Positions 7,110 through 57,139 of a stretch of 64,000 bases of DNA are shown one piece after another. Each line of letters begins with the position of its first letter. The first letter of the stretch is position 1. The DNA lies in contig JALUEE010000078.1 of the NCBI GenBank assembly GCA_027053075.1, forward strand, positions 25,189 through 89,188, read 5' to 3'. Made by a program: the position numbers and the translations under genes. The notes under the pieces are model-generated. The model was not told where the DNA came from, made no database searches, and saw nothing but the letters and a program-made list of their open reading frames with translations. Origin of the DNA: a candidate division WOR-3 bacterium (GTDB taxonomy: Bacteria > Hydrothermota > Hydrothermia > B15-G9 > WFZT01).

Positions 7110-7114
7110 CCTCC

Positions 7115-16906: not shown

Positions 16907-18546
16907 AATAAACCTCCTTTCAACCTGATAATTTCATCTGGCTCCATAGGGTTTATGATAACATCACCGGGTTTGCGCGGTATTACAAAGTCAATCTTAC
17001 CACGAGAGGCCTTTTTGTCCTGTACGATTTTTTCAAGAATCAACCTCTCATCCACGCGCTCAGCATCAGGCAACTTCCGCAGTAATCCAAATTTACCGAG
17101 CAACTTCTTTGTTCGCTCAAGGAGCCCAGTCTCAGTAATTCCAAGTCCTATCCCAATTTCAATTGCCTTAACAAGACCAATGGCAACAGCCTCGCCATGA
17201 CTTATTCCCAGTATCACCTCATAAGCATGACCAAGTGTATGCCCAAGATTGAGTAACTTCCTCTTACCAGTGGACTCCCTGAAGTCTTCCTCCACGATCC
17301 CGAGTTTTACTTTCGCAGTTCTCTTTATCACCTCAGTGAGTGTCTGAAGATTACGCCTTAGCAACTTATCTACATTTGCCTCAAGGAATTTGAAAAATGC
17401 ATCCCCGTGATCGAAAGAATTCCCCCCACCTGACTCCTCCCCCCACGGACGAAGTCCGTGGGGGGAGGTCGGGAGGGGGGCACCATCTTCTAATTTATTT
17501 GAAAACGTAGTCTCACCAATTATTGCAGACTTCACAATCTCCGCAAATCCCTGGCGAAAATCCTTTCCATCAAGCGACAAAAGAGCTAAAGGATCAATCA
17601 AAATCAAATCCGGGTGATAGAATGTCCCAATGACGTTCTTTATCCCCCTGAAATTCAAAGCATTTTTCCCACCAAGACCTGCATCAACCTGGGCAAGAAG
17701 GGTTGTGGGTGCATTAATAAACCTGACACCTCTTTTGAAAGTAGATGCTGCAAATCCCACCACATCTGAGGCTGCACCTCCTCCTATAGACACCACAGTG
17801 GTTCCCCTTGTTGCCCTTGAATTCAGCAGGAATTCATAGATTCTCGTAAGAGTTTTTAGGCTCTTTGCCCTATCACCATCAGGTAACACAAAAACACTCT
17901 CTGGCAGAAACTCACCAAATAATCTGTAAGCTCGCCTCTGGGCAAAATATCTGACATCCCCCTTTGTGAAATTCCCCAAATCCTTTAAAATCCCGGGCCC
18001 GAGTAAAATTTTCTCTATGCCATCCAGTTCTTCTTTGATGTCCCAATCAATAAGATAGAGTATACTCTGAGCCACGGTCCATGGATTAGCAACCGCATCC
18101 ACAGTATTACCCACCCTTTCGTATATTTCCCGTCTTTCATTCAGAATTTTTCTCAGGTTATCCTCAATCCCCCCTTTCAAAAGAGGCCTCACATCACTTT
18201 TTCCCCTGCACCTTCTAACAAGCTCTTTAAGTGGAACCTCAAGATACACTCCCAGTGACTGCTCTCCAATCAACTTGAGATTTTCCGAATCTGTCACCAC
18301 TCCCCCACCGGTGGCAATCACCGTATTCTCAAGACGCATTGCGGACTGCAGAACCTCTTTCTCCAACCTTCTGAAATAGTCCTCACCGTAAGCTCTAAAA
18401 ATTTCAGGGATTTTAAGGCCAGAGCGCTGTTCGATAAGCCTATCCGTGTCAACAAAATCCCATCCGAGTGCCGCGGCAAGCCTCTTTCCAACAGTGGTCT
18501 TGCCACTGCACATCATACCTGTGAGAACGATTCTTCTGGGGATCAT
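16903..18546 (-). CDS. aroKB: Bifunctional shikimate kinase / 3-dehydroquinate synthase (AroK-AroB fusion) carrying an in-frame hairpin-repeat insertion
   Basis: N-terminus LTGMMCSGKTTVGKRLA (shikimate kinase P-loop); C-terminal DHQ synthase motifs (GGGAASDVVGFAASTF...NAPTTLLAQVDAGLGGKNALNF; LNLGHTLGHAYE); 20-aa insert encoded by repeat at 17422..17481. Confidence 0.8.
   Translation of the reverse strand: MIPRRIVLTGMMCSGKTTVGKRLAAALGWDFVDTDRLIEQRSGLKIPEIFRAYGEDYFRRLEKEVLQSAMRLENTVIATGGGVVTDSENLKLIGEQSLGVYLEVPLKELVRRCRGKSDVRPLLKGGIEDNLRKILNERREIYERVGNTVDAVANPWTVAQSILYLIDWDIKEELDGIEKILLGPGILKDLGNFTKGDVRYFAQRRAYRLFGEFLPESVFVLPDGDRAKSLKTLTRIYEFLLNSRATRGTTVVSIGGGAASDVVGFAASTFKRGVRFINAPTTLLAQVDAGLGGKNALNFRGIKNVIGTFYHPDLILIDPLALLSLDGKDFRQGFAEIVKSAIIGETTFSNKLEDGAPLPTSPHGLRPWGEESGGGNSFDHGDAFFKFLEANVDKLLRRNLQTLTEVIKRTAKVKLGIVEEDFRESTGKRKLLNLGHTLGHAYEVILGISHGEAVAIGLVKAIEIGIGLGITETGLLERTKKLLGKFGLLRKLPDAERVDERLILEKIVQDKKASRGKIDFVIPRKPGDVIINPMEPDEIIRLKGGLL
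17422..17481. repeat. Composite GC-rich hairpin repeat (CCCCCCACCTGACTCC-TCCCCCCACGGAC-GAAG-TCCGTGGGGGGA-GGTCGGGAGGGGGG) inside aroKB coding sequence, in frame
   Basis: Near-identical architecture to copies at 21167..21226 and 26105..26164; translated as APLPTSPHGLRPWGEESGGG in a predicted surface loop. Confidence 0.7.
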
Positions 18547-21166: not shown

Positions 21167-21226
21167 CCCCCCTCCTCTCCTCCCCCCACGCACTTTGTGC
21201 GTGGGGGGAGGAACAAGGTGGGGGGA
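21167..21226. repeat. Composite GC-rich hairpin repeat (core CCTCCCCCCACGCAC-TTTG-TGCGTGGGGGGAGG)
   Basis: Inverted repeat seen directly; same family as 17422 and 26105 copies. Confidence 0.75.
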
Positions 21227-21275: not shown

Positions 21276-21330
21276 GCCCTTTGCGGGGCGGGGTCGTGCA
21301 CTTCGTGCACGACCCCGCCCCGCAGCAAAG
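21276..21330. repeat. GC-rich hairpin repeat (TGCGGGGCGGGGTCGTGCAC-TTC-GTGCACGACCCCGCCCCGCA)
   Basis: Perfect 20-bp arms with TTC loop. Confidence 0.75.
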
Positions 21331-26104: not shown

Positions 26105-26164
26105 CCCCCCACCTGTCTCCTCCCCCCACGCACAAAGTGCGTGGGGGGAGGATGGGAAGGGGGC
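26105..26164. repeat. Composite GC-rich hairpin repeat (CCCCCCACCTGTCTCC-TCCCCCCACGCAC-AAAG-TGCGTGGGGGGA-GGATGGGAAGGGGG)
   Basis: About 85 percent identical to the intragenic 17422 copy. Confidence 0.75.
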
Positions 26165-26239: not shown

Positions 26240-28474
26240 ATGATAGAAATTGTGTTATCGGTCATTTTAGCATTCAATCCTTCGGTAAACAACTGGCAAT
26301 GGAACTCCATCGGTCCTGATGGGGGTACAGTTCTGTCCATTGCCTCCAACTCAGACGGGACAAATCTTCTGGCTGTTACAATTGGAGCGGTGTGGAAATT
26401 TAATGGTTCAAGCTGGTCAACCGTATTTCCAATCTCAGGTCCCGGTACTATTCTCAATACCGGCCAGGATAGTTTCTGTTTGATTATCTCAGACGACTCT
26501 ACTCTTGTCTACACTTCATCTGATGGAGGTAATACCTGGACCCAAACCTACTCCTCAGACCGTTGGTTTGCGGGAGCTTCCAACGTGAATTCGCATTATG
26601 TGTATATCGCAAATGGAGACTCGGTATACATTTCTTCAGACGGTGGGAATACCTGGACAAGTGTCCCCAGACCGATAAATTCATCAAACAACATAAACTT
26701 AAATGGATGCCGAATCTCGTACTCCCCCAACTTTCCCTCAGTTGTTTTTATGGCAGTATCCGGCGATAGCATGGGAAACCCAATGCTCTGGCTCTTTAAA
26801 TCCAGTAACTATGGTCAGAGCTGGTCACTTGTTTTTAATGATACCATCATAAGCGAAATTGACGCATTCCTCGTAGACCCTGATGACACTAATAGATTAT
26901 TCATCGGGGCAGGAATTGGAGAAGATAATTCCATTCCAGGAATATATGTTTCCACTGATGGAGGAGCAACCTGGACACCAACAATTGCATCCATTCAGGC
27001 GGGTATAATTTTCCCGAGTGATCTAAAGATGTATAACGACACACTATATGTCGCTTCCCTTATAAACCCAGGAATATATAAAGGATTCCAGGTAGCGGGT
27101 TTATGGTATTTCAACGCTTTATCCACAGACTATATCACTTACTCTCTTGATATAACTTCGAATGGTACAATGTATGCTGGGATCAGTGGCGGGGTGATGC
27201 AATCATCTGATAGAGCAAACTTCCAGGATATAACTCAGGGACTTCGAGCAGTTTATACACCTTACACACACGGAGTTATTGGAACTTACTACTCAGTCGA
27301 GGCCAATGGGTACATTTACATGATTGATGGAGTATTTACAGCGGAGTGGACTGGTCCTGTTTTCACAAATGTCCTTTATTACAGCTCCAATGGCGGTAAC
27401 ACATGGTCAAAGCGGTTCTTGCCAGGAATAATCATGCCGGTCGGGGTACAAACTTCACCTACAAACCCATCTGTTGTCTATCTTTCGGGACTCGGATACA
27501 ACTTTGATCCAACAGGTAACTTCCGACTCCATTCCATTTACAAAAGTACCGATTATGGAGCCACTTTCACCGCAATGGACCCTGGATTCACAATAGATAG
27601 TTTAGCATATTTCTACGACGTTACATGGGTCTCACCTTCAGACCCCAACAGAATTATTGTCAAAGCCTACACATTTGATAAAAATGGCCCGAAGCCAGGA
27701 GGCGCCTCATTGCTCCTCTCAACTGATGGTGGTGCCTCGTTCAGCGCTATCCTGCCAAACTTTGTGCCATTGAGGGTAGTGGGAACTGACACAGTGTATG
27801 CGGCAGGATATAATCCAACCCCCACAATCCTCATAAGCCGAGACGGCGGAGATAACTGGAATCTCTTTACCATCCCTCCAGGAGTGGTCAACGATATGGC
27901 CATCGAAAACGGCTATCTCTACTACTGTTTCAACGGTCAAAATGGTCTTATGGTGGAGAGATCCTCTAATGGGGTAACAATTGATACTCTTTGGTCTTTT
28001 AGCATTTACACCGATTTTGCGAAGCTCGTAACCAACGGAAATGATGTGTTTGTAAGTTTCAAGACTTATCAAGAAGCTGAGCAATTCGTTTATCATTACA
28101 AAAATTCAAACTGGTCGGCCGACACCGTTGATTTTACAGTGGGAGGCCTCATGCTATCTGACACATCATTGATGGCGTTTACAGCGGGAAGGAGCATCTA
28201 CTCGAGCACAGAAGCACTGACAGGGGTTGGTGAATCCGCTCCCATCGGCTACACAAAACATGTAAAAATCCTCTATACAGCAAAGGGACCGGAAATGTTT
28301 GTTAGCACGAATTCTCCGTACAAACTCAGGGTTTACGACGCCACCGGAAGGGAAATACTGGATAAGAAGGTTATGAGTCATAGGGTGATTATGAATTTTA
28401 GGCCCGGGGTATATTTCTATCGGGTGGAGAGCAGCAAACTTCGTGAGACGGGAAAATTTGTGATTTTTAGGTAA
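26240..28474 (+). CDS. Secreted BNR/Asp-box repeat beta-propeller protein with T9SS C-terminal sorting domain
   Basis: Multiple SxDGGxTW motifs (SDGGNTW x2, STDGGATW, SNGGNTW, STDYGATF, STDGGASF, SRDGGDNW); C-terminal ...YKLRVYDATGREIL...GVYFYRVESSKLRETGKFVIFR. Confidence 0.7.
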   Translation: MIEIVLSVILAFNPSVNNWQWNSIGPDGGTVLSIASNSDGTNLLAVTIGAVWKFNGSSWSTVFPISGPGTILNTGQDSFCLIISDDSTLVYTSSDGGNTWTQTYSSDRWFAGASNVNSHYVYIANGDSVYISSDGGNTWTSVPRPINSSNNINLNGCRISYSPNFPSVVFMAVSGDSMGNPMLWLFKSSNYGQSWSLVFNDTIISEIDAFLVDPDDTNRLFIGAGIGEDNSIPGIYVSTDGGATWTPTIASIQAGIIFPSDLKMYNDTLYVASLINPGIYKGFQVAGLWYFNALSTDYITYSLDITSNGTMYAGISGGVMQSSDRANFQDITQGLRAVYTPYTHGVIGTYYSVEANGYIYMIDGVFTAEWTGPVFTNVLYYSSNGGNTWSKRFLPGIIMPVGVQTSPTNPSVVYLSGLGYNFDPTGNFRLHSIYKSTDYGATFTAMDPGFTIDSLAYFYDVTWVSPSDPNRIIVKAYTFDKNGPKPGGASLLLSTDGGASFSAILPNFVPLRVVGTDTVYAAGYNPTPTILISRDGGDNWNLFTIPPGVVNDMAIENGYLYYCFNGQNGLMVERSSNGVTIDTLWSFSIYTDFAKLVTNGNDVFVSFKTYQEAEQFVYHYKNSNWSADTVDFTVGGLMLSDTSLMAFTAGRSIYSSTEALTGVGESAPIGYTKHVKILYTAKGPEMFVSTNSPYKLRVYDATGREILDKKVMSHRVIMNFRPGVYFYRVESSKLRETGKFVIFR

Positions 28475-28483
28475 AATAAAAAT

Positions 28484-28517
28484 GTGTGGGGGCGGGCGCA
28501 AAGCGCCCGCCCCCACA
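28484..28517 (+). terminator. GC hairpin TGTGGGGGCGGGCGC-AAAG-CGCCCGCCCCCACA then TTTAAT; probable terminator and member of the hairpin family
   Basis: 15-bp perfect stem directly after stop of the 26240..28474 gene. Confidence 0.5.
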
Positions 28518-28584: not shown

Positions 28585-29787
28585 TTACCATGTTGAGGGT
28601 ATTCTTATTGTGAATTTCAATCCATTGCCAGGATTGCCTTTTACATCTATTTCCCCACCGTGAGCTTCTACGATTTTTTTAACAAGATACAGCCCAAGTC
28701 CAAGTCCCCGGGTTTTGGTGGTATAAAACATATCAAAAATATGCGTAAGTGCTTCTTCACTCATTCCACTGCCATTATCTGAAATCTCCAGAATAAAGCT
28801 ATGTCCCCTCCTTTTTACATCTACCCTTATTTCCGTAGCATCTGCTTCAATAGCGTTTTTAAAAATGTTATAGAGCACCTGTTCCATCCAGTGCGGATCG
28901 CAAAAAACATCTGTTTCCTCATTGACTTTCACGCTGATATTTCTCGCAAGTTCAGCCTGTAATCCAGAAACAACCTTATCTATCAGTTCACTCAATTTAC
29001 AATTTGCCAGTTTCAACTTGATGTGACGCGATACATTTCTGAAATCGTTAACAATGGAAATCAACCTCTTAGTTTCATTTCTTATCATCTCGGTAAACCT
29101 GTCTCTCCCACATTTTGACTCAATCATCTGGAGAGCAAGATGGATAGTATTTAATGGATTTTTTATTTCATGAGCGATAAGGGAGGAGAACGATGAAAGT
29201 TCCTGAAATCTCTTTTTCTCAGCTTCTTCCTCTTTTATTCTTGCCTCCATTCTTACAATTCTTTCGTGAAATTTTAGTATTCCAACGAGGGCTATAAGGA
29301 AGATCAGGGTGGAGAAAAAAACGAGTGTCAGACCAGTCCTCTTCTGCTTTTTGAGTAATACGTCAAGGAATTTTAGGGAGTATCCTCCCACAAGAGATGA
29401 ATGTCTCCCAAGATTAACCTTAAATTCGAGGATGTCGTGGTCGATGGTTTTTACAATCCTCAAGGAATCGCTTATCCCCGGCTCTATAGGGAGGAAATAA
29501 TCATATTTTGATTGCCAGTAAACCACACTGTCACCGATCATGTAAGCAAGATAGTCAAATTCTCCTTCTTTTGTTAGTTTATCGATTACTCTCGATATAT
29601 CTTCCAGTTTCAAGTCTCGATGACATGAAAACACTGTAAAAGTTTGCTTTATCCCTGAAATGTAGTTTCTTGCGATTTTTAGATAAGCATTTCTTGTGGA
29701 CGTGTAATTTCTGAAGAAAATGAAGCCCACAAGGGAGACGAAGAGAATGTAAACAAGGAGTATCAGGAGGCCGAATCGCTTAGCCAT
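28585..29787 (-). CDS. Membrane-bound sensor histidine kinase
   Basis: Two N-terminal TM segments; HisKA H-box LIAHEIKNPLNTI; HATPase_c (DNGSGMSEE, GLGLGLYLVKKIVEAHGGEIDV). Confidence 0.8.
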   Translation of the reverse strand: MAKRFGLLILLVYILFVSLVGFIFFRNYTSTRNAYLKIARNYISGIKQTFTVFSCHRDLKLEDISRVIDKLTKEGEFDYLAYMIGDSVVYWQSKYDYFLPIEPGISDSLRIVKTIDHDILEFKVNLGRHSSLVGGYSLKFLDVLLKKQKRTGLTLVFFSTLIFLIALVGILKFHERIVRMEARIKEEEAEKKRFQELSSFSSLIAHEIKNPLNTIHLALQMIESKCGRDRFTEMIRNETKRLISIVNDFRNVSRHIKLKLANCKLSELIDKVVSGLQAELARNISVKVNEETDVFCDPHWMEQVLYNIFKNAIEADATEIRVDVKRRGHSFILEISDNGSGMSEEALTHIFDMFYTTKTRGLGLGLYLVKKIVEAHGGEIDVKGNPGNGLKFTIRIPSTW

Positions 29788-30170
29788 TATCGTCTTCCGT
29801 GCCGGCCTCTCCTTTGTTTAAAGCCATGTCCCCGCCACACGGGAAAGCCGTTTGGGTCACGTAGAGTCAGTTTTTTCTTCAGAGTTTTATCGTTAATTTT
29901 CCCTGCGATTATTATGTTGTTGTGAATACTACCATAAATTTCCACCGTGTCTCCGGTACGTGGAAGCCACGGCATTCCAAATCGTGGCCCAAGGAGTACC
30001 TCAAAAGTATCCTTTTTTTCAGTAACAATGTCCATTCTTATAGGCCATGCTGTGTCGTGCACAGCATCAACCACCCCTCCTACAGTCTTCAAACTCTTGA
30101 GATTATAGTACAATCTCTGCCCCCCTGGTTGGGCAAATAATGTGAACGTTAACAGTAAACTAAGAATCAT
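29787..30170 (-). CDS. Small secreted protein with Gly/Arg-rich basic C-terminal tail; paralog of 31872..32267
   Basis: Start MILSLLLTFTLFAQ overlaps upstream stop (ATGA); VGGVVDAV...GDTVEIYGSI...WRGHGFKQRRGRHGRR; shares architecture with the 32267 protein. Confidence 0.45.
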   Translation of the reverse strand: MILSLLLTFTLFAQPGGQRLYYNLKSLKTVGGVVDAVHDTAWPIRMDIVTEKKDTFEVLLGPRFGMPWLPRTGDTVEIYGSIHNNIIIAGKINDKTLKKKLTLRDPNGFPVWRGHGFKQRRGRHGRR

Positions 30171-30991
30171 TTTTGCAGCTCCTCCCATATTTCGTATGGG
30201 GTTTTCCCTATTTTATCCGAAAATTCACGCAAAGTCATGTTCTTATCCATCTTTACCCCATACTTTAAAAATAGACTTTTGACCTTCTTTTCACTTACAC
30301 CTTGCCTCTCAATCAGTTCCTCAAAAGTCATCCTGCCGAGTCCCATTATCTGTTTACCGGAAAATCTTTCCTTTAGAAGATCATAAATATGCTCGGGAGA
30401 AGTTGAGTTTTTAGCTGCTATGTCTTTTAATTTTTCGTCAACGCTTTGTACCTTTATTCCTCTATTATTCAGATATTTGAGGGCAATTTCTGGATCACCT
30501 TTCAAATCTTCCACCACTTTTTTCAGAGAATAAAGTTCCATGTGAGGAATCGGTGGAGACTGGAGTTTCTTCTCCCATGAATTCTTGAAGTAATCCCCGA
30601 TATCCATAACAGTTTTGAAAGGTGGAACGTTTCCTGCCGACCCAACTATGATTACGACGGTCAAAACTGTAGCAACTGCGAGCTCCTTTTTCAGATAAAA
30701 TGCATGCTTTGCCTTTCTGTACACGTAGTTATAAAGAGATTTCCAGTTGTAGTAAATGTGGAAGATAGCGAATATCAAAAACGCGTATCCAAGGTTTGTA
30801 TGCAATGATTCCCACTGGGTTTTTGTGAGACCCAGTAGTTTCCAGTTTGTCCATTGTGCAATTCTCCCAGGTGGCACGATGTATAGGATGATCCCTGAAA
30901 AAACGAGACCAATAAATGAGAGTGCCATCAGAAATGCTACGAATCCACGAGAATGCCACTTCTTTTCTTTCCTCTTTACTGCTGTCATTTT
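30167..30991 (-). CDS. DUF4405-like membrane protein (cytochrome b-like four-helix membrane domain) with soluble C-terminal extension
   Basis: RGFVAFLMALSFIGLVFSGIILYIVPPGRIAQWTNWKLLGLTKTQWESLHTNLGYAFLIFAIFHIYYNW resembles DUF4405; start moved to MTAVKRK because the upstream part of the ORF is a GC hairpin repeat. Confidence 0.45.
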   Translation of the reverse strand, partial: KMTAVKRKEKKWHSRGFVAFLMALSFIGLVFSGIILYIVPPGRIAQWTNWKLLGLTKTQWESLHTNLGYAFLIFAIFHIYYNWKSLYNYVYRKAKHAFYLKKELAVATVLTVVIIVGSAGNVPPFKTVMDIGDYFKNSWEKKLQSPPIPHMELYSLKKVVEDLKGDPEIALKYLNNRGIKVQSVDEKLKDIAAKNSTSPEHIYDLLKERFSGKQIMGLGRMTFEELIERQGVSEKKVKSLFLKYGVKMDKNMTLREFSDKIGKTPYEIWEELQK

Positions 30992-31057
30992 TAGAACCTC
31001 CTGTGTGTAACGTCCAGTGGGCTTAAAGCTATACAGAGTTCCCGGCTGAATTCCAGG

Positions 31058-31087
31058 GGGGGGCGTGCCCCTGCGGGGCACGCCCCC
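31058..31087. repeat. GC-rich hairpin GGGGGCGTGCCCC-TGC-GGGGCACGCCCCC
   Basis: Perfect 13-bp arms; followed by a T-run on plus strand. Confidence 0.7.
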
Positions 31088-31099
31088 TGATTCCTGTTT

Positions 31100-31774
31100 T
31101 TATCTTGCTCTCCCACGATATCTAAATCTACTTCTTCCGTTTGAACCCGAAATAATCCCGTCAAATCTCTCCTGTGAAATATACTGAGGAGAGTATGTGC
31201 CACCATTCCTTAAAATCTGTCTATAAAATGCCCTCATGTGGTTCTCTGAACCATTAACAAGGTGTGTGTAAACCCTGATCACGTCAGAATTGACGGCAAT
31301 ATTTGCGAGGGCCTCATCCAGATCGTAAATATCAAGGTCTTCAATGGTTGCTCCCACCACGAGGGCGTCAAGTAACGACCTGCTCCCCTGTTCCACAAGT
31401 CTCTGGTAGAGAGCCGTTAAATTTGGATCCTGGAAGAATCCAATCGAGTCATTTGTTACGGGATCAGCAATTCCATATCTGTCAAGTAATGTTTTTACTG
31501 CATTTGTGTGTCTCTGCTCACTCGAGGCAATGTTATTGAATATTCTTGCTCCCCATCTTTGGTATAGAGTGAGGTACACGTCTCTTGCAAGCTTTTCTTC
31601 CTGTCTCATGTGTATGAGACTCTGGATTTCATCCTGGGTCAAATCAGTTGTCGTGGGTTGAACAGCAGTGGTCTGTGCCACTGGATCATTCATGGAAATA
31701 GCTGATGATTGACCGCAGGCAGTGAATGCAAATACAGAACCTACTATTATAGTTAGTGCTAACAATCTTCTCAT
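31100..31774 (-). CDS. Lipoprotein with ferritin-like DUF2202-type domain
   Basis: Lipobox AFTACG; DLTQDEIQSLIHMRQEEKLARDVYLTLY...SEQRHTNAV...IEDLDIYDL...SENHMRAF resembles DUF2202 ferritin-like di-iron helices; Arg-rich tail. Confidence 0.5.
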   Translation of the reverse strand: MRRLLALTIIVGSVFAFTACGQSSAISMNDPVAQTTAVQPTTTDLTQDEIQSLIHMRQEEKLARDVYLTLYQRWGARIFNNIASSEQRHTNAVKTLLDRYGIADPVTNDSIGFFQDPNLTALYQRLVEQGSRSLLDALVVGATIEDLDIYDLDEALANIAVNSDVIRVYTHLVNGSENHMRAFYRQILRNGGTYSPQYISQERFDGIISGSNGRSRFRYRGRAR

Positions 31775-31835
31775 ATTAACAACCTCCTTTTTAAAATTTT
31801 TTATTTTTCATTAAAAATCAAAGTTTTTTGACTTT

Positions 31836-31868
31836 GTGTGTGGCGGCCTTAAAAAGGCCGCCACACAC
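31836..31868. repeat. Hairpin GTGTGTGGCGGCC-TTTAAAAA-GGCCGCCACACAC
   Basis: Perfect 13-bp arms. Confidence 0.6.
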
Positions 31869-31871
31869 GCC

Positions 31872-32267
31872 TTACCAATGCCCTGGGCCCCTCCAGAATC
31901 CTGCGCATCTACGTGGACCGTATGCCCACCTCAATGCATATACCCTTTTAGCCGTCAGGTTTCGGACAAAACTTACAAGTATCCCTGAACTGGCATACTG
32001 GAATGAGATTCCCTGGAGTTCAACCCTATCTCCTATACCAATCTGTATGCCGAATGACCATGTGGGTGGTATCCATGCGTAAACTATTCTTCCCGGAGCA
32101 GTTCTTACTCCAATTCGCATGTATTTGCAGCAGGCCCATGAATTGGGTGCGACATACTCGATCTTTTCTACCACACCTGTTACCTTCATTTGTGTTGTGT
32201 CCTGTGCCATCAAAGCTCCAGAGAACAGCCCAAGACCTATTATGGCGGAGAATATTGCCCTCCTCAT
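31872..32267 (-). CDS. Small secreted protein with Gly/Arg/Trp-rich C-terminal tail; paralog of 29787..30170
   Basis: Start at MRRAIF preceded by AAGGAGG; signal peptide; VTGVVEKIEY...GDRVELQGIS...GPRRCAGFWRGPGHW. Confidence 0.45.
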   Translation of the reverse strand: MRRAIFSAIIGLGLFSGALMAQDTTQMKVTGVVEKIEYVAPNSWACCKYMRIGVRTAPGRIVYAWIPPTWSFGIQIGIGDRVELQGISFQYASSGILVSFVRNLTAKRVYALRWAYGPRRCAGFWRGPGHW

Positions 32268-32318
32268 GGTCTCATCCTCCTTCATTTTTAAATATCAATT
32301 TTGTCACTCTATCTAACG

Positions 32319-32333
32319 GCAATTTATCTGCCA
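32319..32333 (-). promoter_or_regulatory. Sigma-54 (RpoN) promoter TGGCAG-ATAAA-TTGC upstream of the 32267 small-secreted-protein gene
   Basis: Minus-strand sequence GTGGCAGATAAATTGCC matches the TGGCAC-N5-TTGC consensus with correct spacing; about 40 nt upstream of the start codon. Confidence 0.6.
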
Positions 32334-32426
32334 CAAAATAAAATTTTAGGTTTGATGCGTTTTTCACAATGGACTCCTATGGAATCGCATACAAAATTGT
32401 CGAATGATAGGATACGCACAGGATAG

Positions 32427-32448
32427 AATTCGACAATTTTGTCGAATT
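32427..32448. promoter_or_regulatory. Inverted repeat AATTCGAC-AATTTT-GTCGAATT; candidate enhancer/UAS for the adjacent NtrC-family activator (extra half-site AAATTGTCGAAT at 32394..32405)
   Basis: 8-bp perfect arms about 100 bp upstream of the sigma-54 promoter; repeated half-site 25 bp away. Confidence 0.5.
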
Positions 32449-32530
32449 GAAGGAAATTAAACTCCCTGGCTGGATTTTACCACGTTAGATATGTTAGAAA
32501 ATTAAGGGATTGAGAACGGAAGCTATATGA

Positions 32531-33895
32531 TCAGCTATGTTTTTCCTTTATTCCAAGTTTTTCCATCCTGTATCTAAGTACCCTTTCTGAGATCCCAAGT
32601 TCCTTCGCAGCTCTTGTCTTCACCCAGTTATTCTTCTTTAGTGCCTCGAGGATTAGACTTTTTTCAATAAGCTCGAGTCTCTCTGGCAAGGATAAATTTT
32701 TATTGCTTTCAACCTGAAATTCGCTCGATAGAAGATGAACAGGCAAGTCATCAGTTGTGATAAGGTCACCTTGGGCCATCACAACGGCCCTTTCAACGAT
32801 ATTTTCCAGTTCTCTTACATTGCCAAGATAATCGTATCTTATTAATGCCTCATAAGCCTCTCTTGTAAAACCGTGGATTTTCTTTCCCTCTTTTTGACTG
32901 AATTTTTTGAGAAAGTGAGCGAGGAGATACGGAATATCCTCTCTCCGCTCCCTCAGAGGTTTGATGTGAATATGGATGACATTCAGTCTGTAGTAGAGGT
33001 CTTCTCTAAAATTTCCCTTCCTGACTTCTTCTTCGAGATTCTTATTTGTAGCTGCAATGACTCTGATATCCACTTTGACAGGTTTGGACGAACCAACCGG
33101 GAAAAATTCACCTTCTTGCAAAGCCCTCAGTAGTTTGGGCTGAAGATTTAGAGGGAGTTCACCAATTTCATCGAGGAAGATAGTGCCACCATCTGCCATC
33201 TGAAAATACCCCTTTCTGTCTTTAACTGCATCAGTGAATGCTCCTTTTACATGTCCAAAGAGTTCAGATTCGATCAAAGTCTCCGGAATGGCTGCAACAT
33301 TCACTGGTATGAAAGGTTTGTCTTTTCGAGGGGAATAACGGTGGATAAATCTCGCTATAAGCTCTTTCCCGGTCCCTGTCTCTCCTGTAATTAATACAGA
33401 GGCACGGGATTTTGCAACTTTGAGAGCAGTGGCAAGAACCCTCTTCATCTCGTATGATTCAGCTACGATACCCTCCACATCAGGATAGAAAAGTTCTTTT
33501 TCTTCTTTGAGTAGCTCGATTTCTTTCACGAGATTTAGATGTTTTATTGCACGGGAAATGACAATGAGCAATTCATCAAGATTTATCGGTTTTACCAGAT
33601 AGTGGAATGCTCCAGACTTCATTGCTTCGATAACGAGATCGACATCAGAGTAAGCAGTGGTCATTATAACCGGGATTTGTGGATTAATCTCCCTGATTTT
33701 CTTTAACAAATCGATACCCGACGTGTCTGGCAATTTGATATCGAGAAGGATAGCATCAAAAATTCTGGACTCGAATTTTTTTAACGCTTCTCCACCAGAC
33801 TCCGCTCCTTCGGTTTCGTAACCTTTACTTTCGAGAAATTCCTGGAGAATCTCTCTTTGATTTTTTTCGTCCTCTACTATCAATATTGTTGACAT
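32531..33895 (-). CDS. Sigma-54-dependent response regulator (NtrC family: REC + AAA+ + Fis-type HTH)
   Basis: ILIVEDE...DAILLDIKLPDTSG (REC); GETGTGKELIARFIH Walker A; GAFTDA variant of GAFTGA; C-terminal HTH ...WVKTRAAKELGISERVLRYRMEKLGI. Confidence 0.85.
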   Translation of the reverse strand: MSTILIVEDEKNQREILQEFLESKGYETEGAESGGEALKKFESRIFDAILLDIKLPDTSGIDLLKKIREINPQIPVIMTTAYSDVDLVIEAMKSGAFHYLVKPINLDELLIVISRAIKHLNLVKEIELLKEEKELFYPDVEGIVAESYEMKRVLATALKVAKSRASVLITGETGTGKELIARFIHRYSPRKDKPFIPVNVAAIPETLIESELFGHVKGAFTDAVKDRKGYFQMADGGTIFLDEIGELPLNLQPKLLRALQEGEFFPVGSSKPVKVDIRVIAATNKNLEEEVRKGNFREDLYYRLNVIHIHIKPLRERREDIPYLLAHFLKKFSQKEGKKIHGFTREAYEALIRYDYLGNVRELENIVERAVVMAQGDLITTDDLPVHLLSSEFQVESNKNLSLPERLELIEKSLILEALKKNNWVKTRAAKELGISERVLRYRMEKLGIKEKHS

Positions 33896-33973
33896 CTCAA
33901 CACCCCTTTGGGCATTATGAATATAAAAGATGGCAGAAGTTTTACAAGTATCTTCATAAACTATGAATCAAAC

Positions 33974-36974: not shown

Positions 36975-37007
36975 GGCGGGCCCACGCACGAAGTGCGTGG
37001 GCCCGCC
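36975..37007. repeat. Hairpin GGCGGGCCCACGCAC-GAA-GTGCGTGGGCCCGCC
   Basis: Perfect 15-bp arms containing the CACGCAC core. Confidence 0.7.
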
Positions 37008-39554: not shown

Positions 39555-40247
39555 ATGAGCGTTCTGGAACTTAGAGAATTACAGGCATTGAACACCCTTG
39601 TCTTCGAGACCCTTGGACAGCCAGAGAAGGAGAGAGAATTCAAATTCAAATCTCTCAAGAAATGGGGTCTGGATTTGATTTTGGGTAAAAAGGGAGGGAA
39701 AACCACGTATTTTGTCGCTGAGTATGGGAAAAGGAAGTTGGGTGATATTTATGAAGAAAGCGGTGTTAAATACGAAGTTGACGAGATCCTTTACGAAATG
39801 CCCAAAAATAAGAGGTTATTTGCCCACATTGAAATGGAGGACGGTAGAGCCTACCTTGTTGGTCAGCTCAGAGAAGGAGATGAAAACATCGAAATCCTTA
39901 GGTTACCCGCTGCATCACTACTTCTTGCCTATTTCAAAAAGCACAGGTTGCACCACTTGATCGAGGCAATGAGAAATGTTGGAACAGCTACGGAGTTGGT
40001 TAAGCAAAGAGGTCAGGAGGGAAAGCCATATCCATTCAGCAAATTGCCCAATGTAGCAAGAAGATTCCTGAGAGAAGCCAAGAAAATCGAGCGCGAAGCA
40101 GGATTTGGAAGAGTCGCACTTGCATACTACGGTGAAAACAAGGACGGAGATGCAAGATTCAGAGTCTCATGGTTACTCCCAACCATTGCTCTCTTTGAAA
40201 TCGATATCGCGGAGAAGGCAGACAAAATCCTTGGAGCTTTCAAGTAA
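39555..40247 (+). CDS. Hypothetical protein (230 aa), first gene of the prefoldin-containing operon
   Basis: AGGAGG SD; no motif I can assign. Confidence 0.45.
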
Positions 40248-40971: not shown

Positions 40972-41430
40972 ATGGCAGCAAAGAAAGAAGTAAAAAAGGA
41001 CGACAAAAAAATGGCTGAACTCAATAGGGAGCTGAGAAGCTATATAAACCAGATAGAAACACTCAGGGTAAATATTACAAACATTGATGCCCTGATTTCG
41101 GAGTACAGGACAACCATAACAACCCTTCAGAACCTGAAAGACCTTGGTAAAGGTAAAGAAGTGCTCCTGCCTGTAGGAAGGATTGCACAGGTTAGCGCGA
41201 AATTAGAGGCAGTTGATAAAGTAGTGGTAAGCATTGGAAGCAGCATATCTGTCGAGCTCACATTCGACGAGGCCGTCAAGCAGATCGAGAAGGAAATCTC
41301 AGCTCTAATACTGCTCAGACAGGCACTTGAGAAGACGATGGTAGAGCTCTATGGGAAAGTGGAAGAATTAACCCAGAAGATAAGAGAACATGGAAGAGAA
41401 GAAGCAACAGCAGAAGAAGGAAAGAAATAA
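40972..41430 (+). CDS. pfdA: Prefoldin alpha subunit-like protein (archaeal PfdA/GimC-alpha type)
   Basis: AAAAAGGAGG SD; coiled-coil N and C helices flanking GKGKEVLLPVGRIAQVSAKLEAVDKVVVSIGSSISVELTFDEAVKQIEKEI, matching the PfdA double beta-hairpin consensus EiLVPiGxGxfvxgxixdxxkvlVxlGsGyxvExsxdEAixxLek. Confidence 0.6.
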   Translation: MAAKKEVKKDDKKMAELNRELRSYINQIETLRVNITNIDALISEYRTTITTLQNLKDLGKGKEVLLPVGRIAQVSAKLEAVDKVVVSIGSSISVELTFDEAVKQIEKEISALILLRQALEKTMVELYGKVEELTQKIREHGREEATAEEGKK

Positions 41431-42727: not shown

Positions 42728-45472
42728 TCATTCCTTCACCTCTTCCTTTATAACCTCAATTGCCTTCAAAAGCTGGAGGTCTTCATCTGGCCTGTTGGGG
42801 TCATTTTCCACATAAACATCAGGCTTAACCCCAAGACCCTCTAAGTTGGTTCCATCCGGCAAATACCAGCCAACATAAGGCACGTTGAGACTCGAACCGT
42901 CGGGCAATTTAACGTGGTCGGTTCCTATCACCCCACCACCTGTGGGCACACCCACAAGCTTTCCGATTCCGAGATACTTCACAGCAGCCGGGAAAATCTC
43001 CGCATCCGAGAACGAGTACTGGTTAATGAGCACCACAAGGGGCTTGCCCCATCTGAGCCTGGGCTGAACCTGTATCTTTCCACCTCTCCTTCTGAATTTT
43101 GCATAGGCCTTTTTCGTAAGGATATCAAGAAGGGCCTCGTGAATGCGACCACCAGGGTTGTAACGAATATCAAGGATTAACCCCTCTTTCTTCTGCCTCA
43201 AAAATCTCATTATTGCTCGCCTGAATCTTGCAAGCTCATCCTCGTTCATTGCTCTGATATGATGATACGCAACCTTTCCACCTGTCAGGCTATCCACGAT
43301 ATGTGCATTACGCCTCTCCCACTCTTCCCACACGAAAGTCCTCATGGTGTCAGCAGGTAGAACCTTCATGGAGAGCACACGCTCGTCCACTGTTTTCACC
43401 GTTATGCTATCCCTGTTGAAAGTTTCTTTGTAGAAGTTGAAGTGTGGATTTTTAGTGCTGTGGCCGTTGATTTCAACGATCATATCACCCACTTCTAAAC
43501 CAGCAGAGTCTGCAGGTGAACCCTTGAAGACCTTTGCCACCTTCAGCCCGTATTCCGTCAGTTTCCCTCTGAATCCTACAAATCCCTTTATCTTGATTTT
43601 GCTCTTAGGTGGTGAGATTCCCATGTGGGACGCTCTAAGCTCACCGGTCATAAAGAGGATAGCCTTTCTAAGCTCACTGTAAGTTTCGATATAGTCAAGA
43701 AGTGGCTCGTAGTATGCCTTTACCGCTTTCCAATCGACTCCATTCATGGTAGAATCGTAAAATCTCGTCTTCAACTCCTCCCAGGCCATATCGAATATGC
43801 GACGGAAATCCTTTTTACGATCAACCATCTCTTCCGCCGTGAATTCCACAGTTTCAGGCAGAATAAGTTCTTTAGGAGCCTTGATTTTCTGGATTTTCCC
43901 GTGGTTTGTGAAAATAATCAGTCCATCTGCCCAGTTGGGCCCACGCCCAGGGGTGAGCTGCACGTGGTGCTTTCCAGCGGCATCCATGACATAGATATTT
44001 ACACCAGACTGTGATGAGACCTCATAAGCCACCATATTGCCGTCAGGAGAAACTGTTGGAATCTGTTTATAACCCGGCCCTGACGTGAGTTTTTGTGGCT
44101 TGCCTTTGGCCTTACCGTCCTCAAAAGCAACTCGGTAAATTTCTCCGTTACCACTCCTCTGAGAATCAAAATAAATCCATTTTCCATCTGGAGAAAATGT
44201 GGCATCATCGTCTGCCTTTTCGTGGTGGGTAATCTGGAAAACCTTCCTATCACTCAGTCTGATAACAAAAATGTCTTTGTTCCCCTTTCTCATTGATGTA
44301 AACACAATGTAGTTCCCATCAGGTGACCAACTTTCGAAGAAATCATCGTGTTTATCCTTTGTAATCTGCTCGGGCTGGCCACCATCCACAGGAATTACAA
44401 AAATGTCATTATTGCCATTTCTATTCGAAAAGTAGGCAATTTTCTTGCCATCAGGAGAAAAGCGGGGCCACTTATTTGCGTAAGGGTCATCGGTTATTTT
44501 CCTTGCCTCACCTCCATTCGCAGGCACAATCCAGATATCTCCTCTCATAGAAAATGCGATGTATCTGCCATCAGGAGATAGAGCAGGTGATTCGCCCGAA
44601 TCTGTAAATTTCCTCAAAAATTTCTCCGGAAGCTTGTCATCAGTTCTGATAATAATATTCAACGGGCTGACCTCACCTGTAGCAAGATCAAGTTTGTAGA
44701 GCATCAATTTGTGCTCAAATATTGCGAATCTGCCGTCTTTAGATACGGTTAGGTGAAGCGCGTCTCCCCTTTTTAGGTGGGTGAGCCTCACGGGTTTGCC
44801 TTCAAATTTATAAACCTGCAGGCCACTATCCCTTTCCGAAATAAAATAGAGGTTGCCCTTGCCATCAACTGCAGGGTCCCTGTCGGTGCCATCAAAGTGT
44901 GTGATTCTTTCAAACTTACCATCCTTGAGCTTGTAAATTTCTCCATTTGCCGAGCCCCTATATCCCTTTCTGAAGTACGAAACTCCATTTCTCACAAAAT
45001 ATATGGAGCTGTCAGGAGAATATACGGCACTGTGAGATTCAAAGAAGGTTACCCGCTTTGCCGGACCTCCATCTTTGTGAATTTTATAGACACTATAGAC
45101 AATTCCGTCTCGGTAGGAATAAAAAAGTATGGTGTCACCCTTCCAGTCCGATGGGATATCGGTTGAAGGGTTGTAAGTGAGTCTTTTTGGCATACCACCT
45201 TCTGAGGGGACAATCCAGATGTCGTAATTCCCCGCGCGTCTTGAGCCAAAGGCTATGAACTTTCCATCAGGTGACCAGACAGGCTTTGTATCCGTAGAAT
45301 CGTGAAGTGTTATGCGCTTTAATGTGCTGTCTTTCAGCCCATAGACCCAGATATCTCCCCGATAGGTAAATGCAACTTTATTGCCATCCGGAGAAATAGC
45401 CGGGTAAAAAAGTCCAGGGGTTGGCTTCCCCTGCGTAACGGATAGAAAAATAAAGAGAAGATACTTTATCAT
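42728..45472 (-). CDS. Tricorn protease-like (TolB-type beta-propellers + PDZ + S41 C-terminal peptidase)
   Basis: Signal peptide from MIKYLLFIFLS; repeated SPDGKxIAF / DIWIVPxxGG propeller blades; PDZ (KVFKGSPADSAGLEVGDMIVEING); S41 core LILDIRYNPGG...LINQYSFSDAEIF. Confidence 0.7.
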   Translation of the reverse strand: MIKYLLFIFLSVTQGKPTPGLFYPAISPDGNKVAFTYRGDIWVYGLKDSTLKRITLHDSTDTKPVWSPDGKFIAFGSRRAGNYDIWIVPSEGGMPKRLTYNPSTDIPSDWKGDTILFYSYRDGIVYSVYKIHKDGGPAKRVTFFESHSAVYSPDSSIYFVRNGVSYFRKGYRGSANGEIYKLKDGKFERITHFDGTDRDPAVDGKGNLYFISERDSGLQVYKFEGKPVRLTHLKRGDALHLTVSKDGRFAIFEHKLMLYKLDLATGEVSPLNIIIRTDDKLPEKFLRKFTDSGESPALSPDGRYIAFSMRGDIWIVPANGGEARKITDDPYANKWPRFSPDGKKIAYFSNRNGNNDIFVIPVDGGQPEQITKDKHDDFFESWSPDGNYIVFTSMRKGNKDIFVIRLSDRKVFQITHHEKADDDATFSPDGKWIYFDSQRSGNGEIYRVAFEDGKAKGKPQKLTSGPGYKQIPTVSPDGNMVAYEVSSQSGVNIYVMDAAGKHHVQLTPGRGPNWADGLIIFTNHGKIQKIKAPKELILPETVEFTAEEMVDRKKDFRRIFDMAWEELKTRFYDSTMNGVDWKAVKAYYEPLLDYIETYSELRKAILFMTGELRASHMGISPPKSKIKIKGFVGFRGKLTEYGLKVAKVFKGSPADSAGLEVGDMIVEINGHSTKNPHFNFYKETFNRDSITVKTVDERVLSMKVLPADTMRTFVWEEWERRNAHIVDSLTGGKVAYHHIRAMNEDELARFRRAIMRFLRQKKEGLILDIRYNPGGRIHEALLDILTKKAYAKFRRRGGKIQVQPRLRWGKPLVVLINQYSFSDAEIFPAAVKYLGIGKLVGVPTGGGVIGTDHVKLPDGSSLNVPYVGWYLPDGTNLEGLGVKPDVYVENDPNRPDEDLQLLKAIEVIKEEVKE

Positions 45473-45520
45473 ATCACACAGCCTCCTTTCAAAAATTTTG
45501 GTAAGTTTAAGGTGCTCACA

Positions 45521-46684
45521 ATGGATTTTCAAAAAATGTTGATAGCAAAGAGAAACGACCAGATTACCTCCTTCATCGTGATGGAGATTCTGGAGAAAGC
45601 GGTGCGTCTCGAGCGTGAGGGGAAGAGTATCATTCATCTTGAAATAGGTGAACCTGACTTTGATACCCCGGAGCCCATCCGAAAGGCTGGTATCCGGGCC
45701 ATAAAAGAGAGTAAAACCCACTACACGCCGAGCCTTGGAATCCCGCAGCTCCGAGAGGCAATAGCTGAATTTTACCACGATTACTACGGTGTAGATGTGT
45801 CTCCGGAGCGAGTGGTGGTAACAAACGGCACATCAGGGGCATTTTTACTCGTTATGGCTGCAATCCTTGACATAGGAGACGAGGTCATCTTCACTGATCC
45901 GGGATACCCCTGCTATCCAAATTTTGCACGAAGCTTTGATGCAAATCCCGTGTTTGTCCCGGTTTACGAAGAAGAAAACTTCGAAGTGGATATCAAGCGC
46001 CTAAAAGAGGCTTTGAGTCCCCGCACAAAGGCAATTCTTATCGCCTCACCAGCTAATCCCACGGGAACACTTACAAGCCCCGAAAAACTGAAAGAGGCCC
46101 TTGAGCTTGTACCGTTTTTCATTTCAGATGAAATTTATCACGGCCTCGTATATGAAGGGGAGGAACACACTGTGCTGGAATTTTCAGATAGGGCAATTGT
46201 GATAAATGGATTCTCAAAGCTCTTTGCCATGACCGGATGGAGGCTCGGCTGGGTCATCGTGCCAGAGGATTTATTGAAAACCATCCATAAACTTGCTCAG
46301 AACCTGTTTATCTGTCCAAACTCAATTTCGCAGTATGCTGCTCTGGCAGCCTTTAAAGAAAGCTGGGATTATGTTCTTGAAATGAAAGAAAAATACAACG
46401 AAAGACGACTTGAAATGATAAAGGGGCTCCGCGAGATTGGGTTTGAGATAAAGTCCACCCCGGCAGGTGCCTTTTACGTTTTTGCCAACATTTCAAAGTT
46501 TTCAGATGACTCTTTTAAATTTGCCCATGAGCTCCTGGACAATGCAGGAGTTGCGGCAACTCCGGGAGTTGACTTCGGGAAAAACAGGACCAATCATTAT
46601 ATCCGATTCTCTTATGCCAACTCCCTTGAGAATATCAGGGAAGCGATCGAAAGAATAAAAACTTATCTGAAGGAGAGAGCATGA
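45521..46684 (+). CDS. Class I/II PLP-dependent aminotransferase (aspartate aminotransferase family)
   Basis: SPANPTGT and FSKLFAMTGWRLGW (PLP-Lys) motifs. Confidence 0.8.
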   Translation: MDFQKMLIAKRNDQITSFIVMEILEKAVRLEREGKSIIHLEIGEPDFDTPEPIRKAGIRAIKESKTHYTPSLGIPQLREAIAEFYHDYYGVDVSPERVVVTNGTSGAFLLVMAAILDIGDEVIFTDPGYPCYPNFARSFDANPVFVPVYEEENFEVDIKRLKEALSPRTKAILIASPANPTGTLTSPEKLKEALELVPFFISDEIYHGLVYEGEEHTVLEFSDRAIVINGFSKLFAMTGWRLGWVIVPEDLLKTIHKLAQNLFICPNSISQYAALAAFKESWDYVLEMKEKYNERRLEMIKGLREIGFEIKSTPAGAFYVFANISKFSDDSFKFAHELLDNAGVAATPGVDFGKNRTNHYIRFSYANSLENIREAIERIKTYLKERA

Positions 46685-47606: not shown

Positions 47607-47639
47607 CCCTCCCCCGCTTGCGAAGCAAGCGGGGGAGGG
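47607..47639. repeat. Hairpin CCCTCCCCCGCTTGC-GAA-GCAAGCGGGGGAGGG
   Basis: Perfect 15-bp arms. Confidence 0.65.
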
Positions 47640-54638: not shown

Positions 54639-54782
54639 TTTCTCTCGCTCCAGGGGAAACGTTGAAAATAAATGTTAATCACTGGCAGTTAGATTAATCA
54701 AGTATTTTATGCGTGAATCCTACTTTCTTGCCGTTATCCATGCGGTATTTAAAAACTTTGAAGAAGTCAGTCATGTGTTTTT

Positions 54783-54819
54783 CCTGGGGGGCCACGCACT
54801 TCGTGCGTGGCCCCCCAGG
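54783..54819. repeat. Hairpin CCTGGGGGGCCACGCAC-TTC-GTGCGTGGCCCCCCAGG
   Basis: Perfect 17-bp arms, CACGCAC core. Confidence 0.75.
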
Positions 54820-54924
54820 AAAAACAATTCCTTTATAAGATGCATCTAATGCTTTGAATCTCCCATCGTGCTTTTACAACTCTATTTTGTCAAATTCCTC
54901 ATGCAGGTGTAAAATTTATATGAA

Positions 54925-57090: not shown

Positions 57091-57139
57091 ATTAATGGGG
57101 GTGGTGGGGCACGCACTTCGTGCGTGCCCCACCCATTAA
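57091..57139. repeat. Hairpin ATTAATGGGGGTGGTGGGGCACGCAC-TTC-GTGCGTGCCCCACCCATTAAT (core arms interrupted by a 3-nt bulge in the 5' arm)
   Basis: Longest copy of the CACGCAC-core family. Confidence 0.75.

Follow-up and report, generated by a model that had tools for sequence, protein, structure and literature searches.

In the ZraPSR system of E. coli and in other NtrC-type two-component systems, a membrane kinase with a periplasmic sensor works with a sigma-54 activator of REC-AAA+-HTH architecture, and a -24/-12 promoter with palindromes upstream of it drives a small periplasmic protein, the kinase gene lying within the induced unit. YgiW/BOF proteins are small secreted OB-fold stress proteins encoded beside the QseBC two-component system. 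MamS, which was modelled on YgiW, takes part in the biomineralisation of magnetite, as does MamX, whose partner is the YedZ-like b-haem protein MamZ (PMC3905215); in magnetosomes, pairing of the MamX-MamZ type controls the iron redox state during mineralisation. MsrPQ (YedYZ) relies on a small haem-b membrane protein that relays electrons to a periplasmic redox enzyme, and DUF2202 and DUF4405 have been reported as accessory genes of ferrosome (fez) clusters (10.1101/2020.01.10.902569). Here we describe a six-gene locus, located in a 64-kb stretch of DNA from a candidate division WOR-3 bacterium (hereafter the window, meaning the whole of the sequence analysed), in which a sigma-54-type two-component system is encoded together with a ferritin-like DUF2202 lipoprotein, a DUF4405 membrane protein and two small secreted proteins, SP1 and SP2, of the MamS_MamX type. 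We hold with moderate confidence that the locus is a self-contained, inducible, periplasm-facing module for the redox handling of a metal, probably iron, or of an oxidant.

The locus resembles each of these systems in part. It has the kinase, activator, palindromes, promoter and small exported protein of the ZraPSR layout, but its small proteins are OB-folds and not helical like ZraP, CpxP or Spy, and beside them it encodes a ferritin-like lipoprotein and a putative haem-b membrane protein. Shared with ferrosome clusters are DUF4405 (which is related to FezC), DUF2202 and Arg-rich RxRxR stretches. With magnetosomes it has in common a non-cytoplasmic MamS_MamX OB domain alongside a membrane b-haem protein of the YedZ/MsrQ-like kind; it lacks, however, magnetochrome c-haem domains, a major facilitator superfamily transporter and a magnetosome island, its host is not known to be magnetotactic, and SP1 and SP2 are soluble proteins secreted with cleavable signals, not membrane-anchored ones. 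The proposed electron relay follows the logic of MsrPQ, although the partner would here be a ferritin-like four-helix-bundle lipoprotein in place of a molybdoenzyme and there is no membership at the sequence level. The YgiW/BOF-QseBC arrangement likewise places a small secreted OB protein beside a two-component system, but QseB is not a sigma-54 activator. The components of the locus are known families and its regulatory logic is classical; their grouping as a conserved sigma-54-controlled cassette with fusions was not found in the literature searched. An initial annotation of this DNA had concluded that the locus is a periplasmic redox or metal-stress module matching no named system. That conclusion still stands, and the present analysis adds to it that the small proteins probably belong to a named Pfam family, that the module occurs in other phyla together with fusions, and that all three of its cargo families have links to iron organelles.

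Gene content of the locus

The six genes lie on the minus strand and are read from 33895 to 28585 in the order sigma-54-dependent response regulator (RR; 32531..33895), SP1 (131 aa; 31872..32267), DUF2202 lipoprotein (31100..31774), DUF4405 membrane protein (30167..30988), SP2 (127 aa; 29787..30170) and sensor histidine kinase (HK; 28585..29787). This order and the domains of the products, as given in the initial annotation, were borne out by Pfam, NCBIfam and the positions of the open reading frames (ORFs), and the gene starts are identical in the calls stored with public copies of the locus. The stop of DUF4405 and the start of SP2 overlap as ATGA, and the stop of SP2 and the start of HK as TAATG; SP2 is translationally coupled to DUF4405 on one side and to HK on the other, which bears out the coupling claimed for the last three genes. 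Indeed, all structural claims made at the outset held, nearly base for base.

SP1 and SP2 as probable divergent MamS_MamX-type proteins

SP1 and SP2 gave no match in NCBIfam, nor in the Pfam library used, which holds no PF26390 model, and the precomputed Pfam annotation was empty for the listed SP1/SP2 orthologues (P0001-P0003 and P0004-P0008). Word-indexed homologue searches returned only three to five close orthologues of the two proteins. Using the SP2 group as query, an exhaustive profile search recovered 83 relatives, which share a signal peptide, the motifs Y(N/D)xxTVxT(I/V)xGxV, LGPxWY, GDxVxVxGS, IIA and LRDxxGxPxW, and a short tail, and a second profile search yielded 98 proteins, nearly all of them carrying the precomputed annotation PF26390 (MamS_MamX). 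A surrogate profile hidden Markov model (HMM) was built solely from 91 PF26390-annotated proteins; among the 441 window ORFs scanned, its sole match was SP2 (E 1.4e-15), and SP1 was not detected. By hhalign against the alignment of PF26390-annotated proteins, the SP2 group scored 99.2% and the SP1 group 95.8% (E 7e-9), and the SP1 group matched the wider family alignment A3 at 98.2% (E 6e-14). The surrogate HMM and the profile-profile scores together indicate that both are MamS_MamX-type proteins, and on the strength of their Pfam-annotated relatives we provisionally assign SP1 and SP2 to PF26390 as divergent members, SP1 being the more aberrant. The two had been called paralogous; this holds through the wider MamS_MamX family, whereas their direct comparison gives only marginal similarity (BLASTP E 0.04; hhalign E 0.011, probability 3.7%).

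A signal peptide can be recognised in each sequence. SP1 carries Cys residues and is without the canonical LRDxxGxPxW motif, and its tail ends in RRCAGFWRGPGHW; SP2 carries the motif as LRDxNGFPVW and has the tail RGHGFKQRRGRHGRR. The WRGPGHW and RRGRHGRR endings reported earlier are present as stated. An AlphaFold2 (AF2) model of SP2 made with a 69-sequence alignment showed a beta-barrel of six strands with a disordered tail (pLDDT 84, core above 90; with a 4-sequence alignment only, pLDDT was 47). Foldseek matched this model to OB domains only (TiaS, LysRS, RPA, STN1 and CcmE; best E 2.6e-3), and the guess that the small proteins are OB-like is thereby upheld; a PDB sequence search with the MamS_MamX profile gave weak STN1 OB matches only. 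Across the family, Arg makes up 20.6% of the tail and 5.8% of the body, and Gly 23% and 11%, respectively. The tail is basic in 114 of 190 proteins, Met/His-rich in a few and Cys/His-rich in one. The Arg/Gly tail is a trait of the whole MamS_MamX-type family.

Arg/Gly tails are typical of nucleic-acid binders. Given also that the structural neighbours are nucleic-acid-binding OB domains and that one family member is annotated as a 'DNA-binding protein', the small proteins might be periplasmic or extracellular nucleic-acid binders whose place beside DUF2202 and DUF4405 is functionally meaningless. We consider this very unlikely: SP1 and SP2 have signal peptides, other lineages have MamS_MamX domains joined to DUF2202 and to DUF4405 in single proteins, the MamS_MamX gene is translationally coupled to that of the kinase in three lineages, and the Foldseek E-values are weak and speak for similarity at the level of the fold only.

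Small secreted Arg/Gly/Gln-rich repeat proteins are encoded in the Acidobacteriota locus L024 (7144-7533) and the Candidatus Hydrothermae cluster L012 (5983-6393). Their RLRDGSG or LRLRDEDGDG repeats recall the LRDxxG motif of MamS_MamX, and in both clusters the repeat-protein gene is the first behind the sigma-54 promoter.

The DUF2202 lipoprotein and the DUF4405 membrane protein

The DUF2202 protein matched PF09968 with 204.2 bits (E 1.4e-60) against a threshold of 22, over profile positions 1-160 of 162. It has a signal peptide with the lipobox AFTAC, and its C-terminus is hydrophilic and Arg-rich (RSRFRYRGRAR), with no hydrophobic GxxxG segment. Its domain is a close sequence relative of MJ0754 of Methanocaldococcus jannaschii (PDB 3Q4N/3Q4O/3Q4Q/3Q4R; E 8e-57 over residues 45-218), and a Methanocaldococcus homologue is 56% identical to it. 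MJ0754 has been crystallised, so the fold of DUF2202 is known, and the strong match fits the earlier description of the window protein as ferritin-like. The depositors labelled MJ0754 'uncharacterized', so it gives a fold and no function, and nothing useful on it was found in the literature searched. Relative to MJ0754, the window protein has an additional lipoprotein signal, a linker and the Arg-rich tail.

The DUF4405 protein matched PF14358 with 75.5 bits (E 4.6e-21) against a gathering threshold of 26.7 and has three predicted transmembrane (TM) helices. In an alignment of 9 homologues from WOR-3, Acidobacteriota, Aminicenantes and Bacteroidota (at least four phyla), His63 and His77, which lie 14 residues apart in TM2, are invariant (9/9), and a PIPH(A/M)E motif follows TM3, its His being present in 8 of the 9 sequences. 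A check for His ligands in the helices had been proposed, and these two residues answer it. The C-terminal 125 residues form two IF2_N-like helical repeats, which in homologues reach the Pfam IF2_N threshold. This C-terminus is predicted to be periplasmic, based on the positive-inside rule and on a fusion, in locus L142, in which MamS_MamX follows the repeat. Experiments have shown haem-b binding by a DUF4405 protein and by FezC, a related protein of ferrosomes, FezC has been modelled as a homodimer, and DUF4405 has been described as structurally MsrQ-like (PMC11334425). The description of the window protein as cytochrome-b-like fits both the invariant TM2 histidines and this published haem-b binding, and we regard it as a putative haem protein whose conserved TM2 histidines could act as ligands. 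PDB searches added little, the DUF4405 profile retrieving designed helical repeats only, which is uninformative, and the single sequence a marginal match to STEAP2 (E 0.07).

These two proteins raise the question of whether the locus is part of a ferrosome (fez) cluster that builds or serves an organelle in which iron phosphate is stored inside the cell behind a membrane. The conserved fez features named by Grant and Komeili include DUF4405, R-rich motifs and a ferritin-like protein of the DUF2202 family (10.1101/2020.01.10.902569), DUF4405 is related to FezC (PMC11334425), and the DUF2202 tail RSRFRYRGRAR fits the RxRxR description. However, no P1B-type ATPase, the class of FezB (P1B-6), was found among the scanned ORFs of the window (locus flanks and largest ORFs), and a DKTGT ATPase lies near only 1 of 79 DUF2202 loci. 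DUF2202 is here an exported lipoprotein with an N-terminal signal and without the hydrophobic C-terminal GxxxG segment, and GxxxG proteins are lacking from the cluster as a whole. The R-rich stretches are C-terminal on secreted proteins and not N-terminal, a dedicated sigma-54 two-component system stands in place of Fur/DtxR-type neighbours, and the products would face the periplasm, not an organelle. Ferrosome membership was rejected because no FezB ATPase was found among the scanned ORFs and GxxxG segments are missing, and we regard it as most improbable.

A conserved sigma-54 promoter and enhancer sites upstream of SP1

A near-consensus RpoN promoter had been claimed upstream of SP1, and a pattern scan located it on the minus strand at 32319..32333 (TGGCAGATAAATTGC), its 3' end 51 nt upstream of the SP1 ATG. 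It has the form TGGCAG-N5-TTGC, with 9 of 11 consensus positions and the correct GG-N10-GC spacing. The pattern TGGCA-N6-TTGC occurs four times in the window where 0.47 matches are expected, and TGGCAGATAAATTGC is the sole intergenic one. The scan gave no comparable sigma-54 site upstream of DUF2202, DUF4405 or RR; for the RR gene, a sigma-70-like promoter, TTGTAA-16-TATATT (33920..33947, minus strand), was found by consensus scan as a pattern match only. The inverted repeat and the extra half-site reported upstream of the promoter are both present. Enhancer (upstream activating sequence) site 1 is a perfect palindrome, AATTCGACAA-AA-TTGTCGAATT (10+2+10; 32427..32448), about 95-115 bp upstream of the sigma-54 promoter. 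Site 2, some 30 bp promoter-proximal to it, is the half-site TTGTCGAAT, or TTCGACAA on the gene strand (32397..32405). Exact copies of TTGTCGAAT number three in the 64 kb, all of them here, as the two palindrome arms and the half-site.

The SP1 upstream region of the window was aligned with those of the diverged orthologous loci L004, L005 and L006. The results showed that the 20-bp palindrome core, the TTCGACAA half-site, the promoter (TGGCAG..AAATTGC) and the ribosome-binding site are invariant across the four regions; the mean column identity of the alignment is 61%, and the regulatory sites stand out as conserved islands. In L004 the palindrome arms are longer (18 bp). The same palindrome precedes the Hydrothermae cluster L012, with TTCGACAA-AA-TTGTCGAA at 5853-5870 upstream of the cluster and TGGCACCGAAATTGT (TGGCAC-N5-TTGT) about 80 bp downstream of this palindrome, immediately before the first gene. 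The NtrC-type enhancer layout that had been suggested is supported by this phylogenetic footprinting.

The remaining three TGGCA-N6-TTGC matches (7440-7454, 44436-44450 and 45372-45386, all on the minus strand) fall within long ORFs, two of them in a tricorn-like protease gene (42728-45778); as they lie inside genes, they were dismissed as promoters and are probably chance matches.

Three hairpins punctuate the transcription unit. A 15-bp perfect GC-rich hairpin (31836..31868, minus strand; -31.4 kcal/mol, z -6.7) stands right after the SP1 stop and a 13-bp one (31059..31087, minus strand; -35.9 kcal/mol, z -5.1) after the DUF2202 stop, both without a T-tract; the only one with a T-tract follows HK, where a 15-bp GC stem forms an intrinsic terminator closing the unit (28485..28517, minus strand; z -7.4). 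The positions of the first two are kept in L004, in L015 and, with a different sequence, in L006, which suggests that the structure is under selection. The hairpin after SP1 is probably a partial terminator or an mRNA-stabilising element, and expression may be graded, with SP1 above DUF2202 and DUF2202 above the remaining genes, or may come from independent promoters that escaped recognition.

The window, at about 40% GC, contains some 19 perfect GC-rich palindromic hairpins with stems of 12-24 bp and 3-nt loops, scattered between genes (among them 149-191, 17436-17468, 21178-21212, 21282-21324, 26118-26152, 36975-37007, 47607-47639, 54776-54826, 57103-57133 and 63346-63394). Many share the core CCCCCCACGCAC...GTGCGTGGGGGG, and they resemble a family, spread through the genome, of terminators acting in both directions or of repetitive extragenic palindrome (REP)-like elements.

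The response regulator and the kinase

By Pfam, RR consists of a REC domain (PF00072, 109.9 bits), an AAA+ Sigma54_activat domain (PF00158, 246.8 bits) and a C-terminal Fis-type HTH domain (HTH_8, PF02954, 50 bits), the domain set of the NtrC family, and its Walker A motif is GETGTGK at residue 171. HK has HisKA and HATPase_c domains, its H-box His being His206, and two TM helices flank a 119-aa periplasmic domain that is conserved in the Hydrothermae orthologue. The best NCBIfam matches of RR all score below the cut-off (AtoC 490 vs 714, NtrC 445 vs 559, ZraR 423 vs 760), as do the equivalog scores of HK (AtoS 158 vs 646, ZraS 138 vs 479). RR and HK were not counted as equivalogs of ZraSR, AtoSC or NtrBC, all of these cut-offs being missed widely.

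Recurrence of the cassette in other lineages

Gene neighbourhoods were surveyed around 79 genomic loci obtained with a DUF2202 alignment and around 80 metagenomic loci obtained with a trimmed alignment of long DUF4405 proteins; in the scans the families numbered at least 517 genomic DUF2202 relatives and at least 228 metagenomic long-DUF4405 relatives, and MamS_MamX proteins were found from several phyla. The most specific recurrent neighbour of DUF2202 was long DUF4405 (7 of 79 loci), a pairing that spans WOR-3, Acidobacteriota, Aminicenantes and Bacteroidota. Around long DUF4405, the top neighbours were MamS_MamX, in 8 loci and with a median gap of 28 nt, then kinases and response regulators, each in 8 loci, and DUF2202, in 6; half of the response regulators were of the sigma-54 type. 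The association of the components is recurrent, not obligatory. Among L001, L004, L006 and L015, the flanking genes differ and the six genes are kept together, with an extra short DUF4405 gene in L004 and a second DUF2202 gene in L006. The gene of a MamS_MamX protein is coupled to that of the kinase in the window, in L012 and in L132.

Outside WOR-3, the set recurs in other arrangements. In L024 of the Acidobacteriota, the whole set is present in another order: DUF4405, HK, a sigma-54 RR and MamS_MamX lie on one side, and on the divergent side the gene of the secreted repeat protein is joined by those of a MamS_MamX::DUF2202 fusion and of a tandem MamS_MamX protein, with sigma-54 promoters in both directions and two palindromes of its own between them. 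L026 has a MamS_MamX::DUF2202 fusion followed by DUF4405 and a kinase, and L045 of the Aminicenantes has divergent DUF4405 and DUF2202 genes with a sigma-54 promoter before each; in L024 and L045, sigma-54 promoters stand directly upstream of both DUF2202 and DUF4405. In L142 (metagenome contig Ga0114921_10001667), the gene at 4791-5987 encodes a natural fusion in which a DUF4405 part with three TM helices is combined with a single IF2_N-like repeat and MamS_MamX. DUF4405 paralogues number three in this locus, which also has a divergent kinase gene and, at 3046-3060, a sigma-54 promoter. Such promoters were also found in L127, L128 and L161. In a Chitinophaga metagenome-assembled genome (Bacteroidota, L091), an HMA-AraC regulator of metal type (6607-7212), in which a heavy-metal-associated domain is joined to an AraC-type HTH, lies amid two DUF2202 genes and a long DUF4405 gene, in place of the sigma-54 two-component system of the window. 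In L120, L129 and L172, the genes that follow DUF2202-DUF4405 (ATP-grasp, decarboxylase, and urea transporter/M23) were set aside as unrelated lineage-specific synteny.

Proposed function of the locus and its alternatives

For the regulatory half of the mechanism, we rely on established NtrC-family behaviour and on the conserved sites. The kinase would sense a periplasmic cue via its 119-aa sensor domain and phosphorylate the sigma-54 activator, which would fire the -24/-12 promoter once bound to the palindrome and the half-site, some 65-115 bp upstream of it. SP1 would be made most, and read-through of the two conserved hairpins would yield DUF2202, DUF4405, SP2 and more kinase; with the kinase within the induced unit, this would constitute positive feedback. 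For the cargo half, and likewise for the inducing signal, the direction of electron flow and iron as the substrate, we infer what follows. DUF4405, probably a homodimer, would hold b-type haems on its two invariant TM2 histidines and pass electrons through the inner membrane, with the periplasm on one side of the transfer and the quinone pool or the cytoplasm on the other. Its partner would be the lipid-anchored, di-metal ferritin-like DUF2202 protein, which could oxidise Fe(II) or another metal, or reduce an oxidant. The MamS/MamX-type OB proteins with their poly-Arg/Gly tails would be the subunits that dock or bind the haem protein and DUF2202, and perhaps also anionic mineral, and SP2 is probably in addition the periplasmic partner of the kinase, with which it is always co-encoded. 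We favour iron as the substrate on the grounds that each of the three cargo families has its own tie to an iron organelle, and a further ground is the HMA-AraC regulator in L091.

Several observations weigh against this proposal. Most DUF2202 loci and most long-DUF4405 loci are without the partner genes, and in three other MamS_MamX contexts (L009-L011) the genes stand single or paired, again without partners. The Hydrothermae cluster keeps the two-component system and MamS_MamX and has an outer-membrane-like protein instead of DUF2202 and DUF4405, and this exchange of cargo means that the regulator may respond to a general envelope cue and not to iron. Transcription could end fully at the hairpins that follow SP1 and DUF2202, and the promoter scan gave no promoter for the genes downstream of SP1. 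The sigma-54 contact loop of RR (residues 218-223) reads GAFTDA against the canonical GAFTGA, a variant common to the WOR-3 relative L015, where the promoter is also kept, the Hydrothermae orthologue having GAFTGA; and rpoN was not found among the window ORFs scanned with Pfam. In DUF2202, the second ExxH of classical di-iron sites is replaced, by ENH in the window protein and by RNH in MJ0754. In the family alignments, none of the conserved residues of the OB core is a His, Cys or Met, so the core offers no obvious metal site.

Some of these points would also fit a general envelope-stress response of the ZraPSR/Cpx type, with SP1 and SP2 as periplasmic chaperones or kinase modulators that are made when the envelope is damaged and with DUF2202 and DUF4405 as an MsrPQ-like repair or detoxification pair passing quinol electrons to peroxide removal, iron not being the substrate. 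The highest scores of RR and HK are those against AtoC/AtoS, NtrC and ZraR/ZraS, a sigma-54 two-component system driving a small periplasmic protein resembles zraP-zraSR, and the Hydrothermae cluster has a two-component system and the OB proteins but neither DUF2202 nor DUF4405. Some ferritin-like four-helix bundles, the rubrerythrins for example, are peroxidases. The structural likeness of DUF4405 to MsrQ (PMC11334425) points the same way. However, the scores fall far short of every NCBIfam equivalog cut-off, the small proteins have OB-folds and are not helical like CpxP, Spy or ZraP, the three cargo families are each independently linked to iron organelles, and the fusion proteins favour a dedicated complex over generic chaperones. 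We judge an envelope-stress response to be unlikely, and count its oxidant-detoxifying, MsrPQ-like form as the main rival to the metal-redox module.

The fusion proteins suggest that the three cargo families form a single physical complex. On this basis, the redox module might be an unrecognised, ATPase-independent, periplasm-facing relative of the ferrosome and magnetosome iron-redox machinery, in which MamS/MamX OB proteins, a FezC-like DUF4405 protein and DUF2202 handle iron outside the cytoplasm in one complex; iron would be oxidised and immobilised, or remobilised, under a dedicated sigma-54 three-component sensor. We offer this tentatively, as a possibility and not as the probable case. 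If true, it would give a function to three orphan families at once and point to a non-magnetotactic ancestor of the MamS/MamX-MamZ partnership. DUF2202, DUF4405 and MamS_MamX are widespread, and none has an assigned physiological role outside the two organelles; their shared regulated cassette and fusions provide a testable hypothesis for how the three families work jointly, and tie parts of ferrosomes and magnetosomes to an envelope system that is simpler and probably older. As a compact unit of six genes, one promoter and a defined operator, the cassette could be moved into a tractable host. To our knowledge, WOR-3 and Hydrothermae have no cultured representatives, so any stress or metal response that can be assigned to them helps to interpret their ecology in iron-rich hydrothermal settings.

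Other features of the window

The window also contains a UPF0128 gene (39555-40247) and a prefoldin-subunit gene (40972-41430). Both families are typical of archaea, and the two genes may have been acquired horizontally in a hydrothermal community; the DUF2202 protein likewise has a close counterpart in Methanocaldococcus. At 212-1849, 2802-6119 and 26240-28474, the window encodes large secreted proteins of the BNR/sortilin-like kind that have C-terminal sorting domains of the type IX secretion system (T9SS), one of them directly flanking the locus on the opposite strand, and a TonB-dependent receptor is encoded at 9220-12435. The sorting domains and the receptor together indicate that the host is a diderm with a T9SS.

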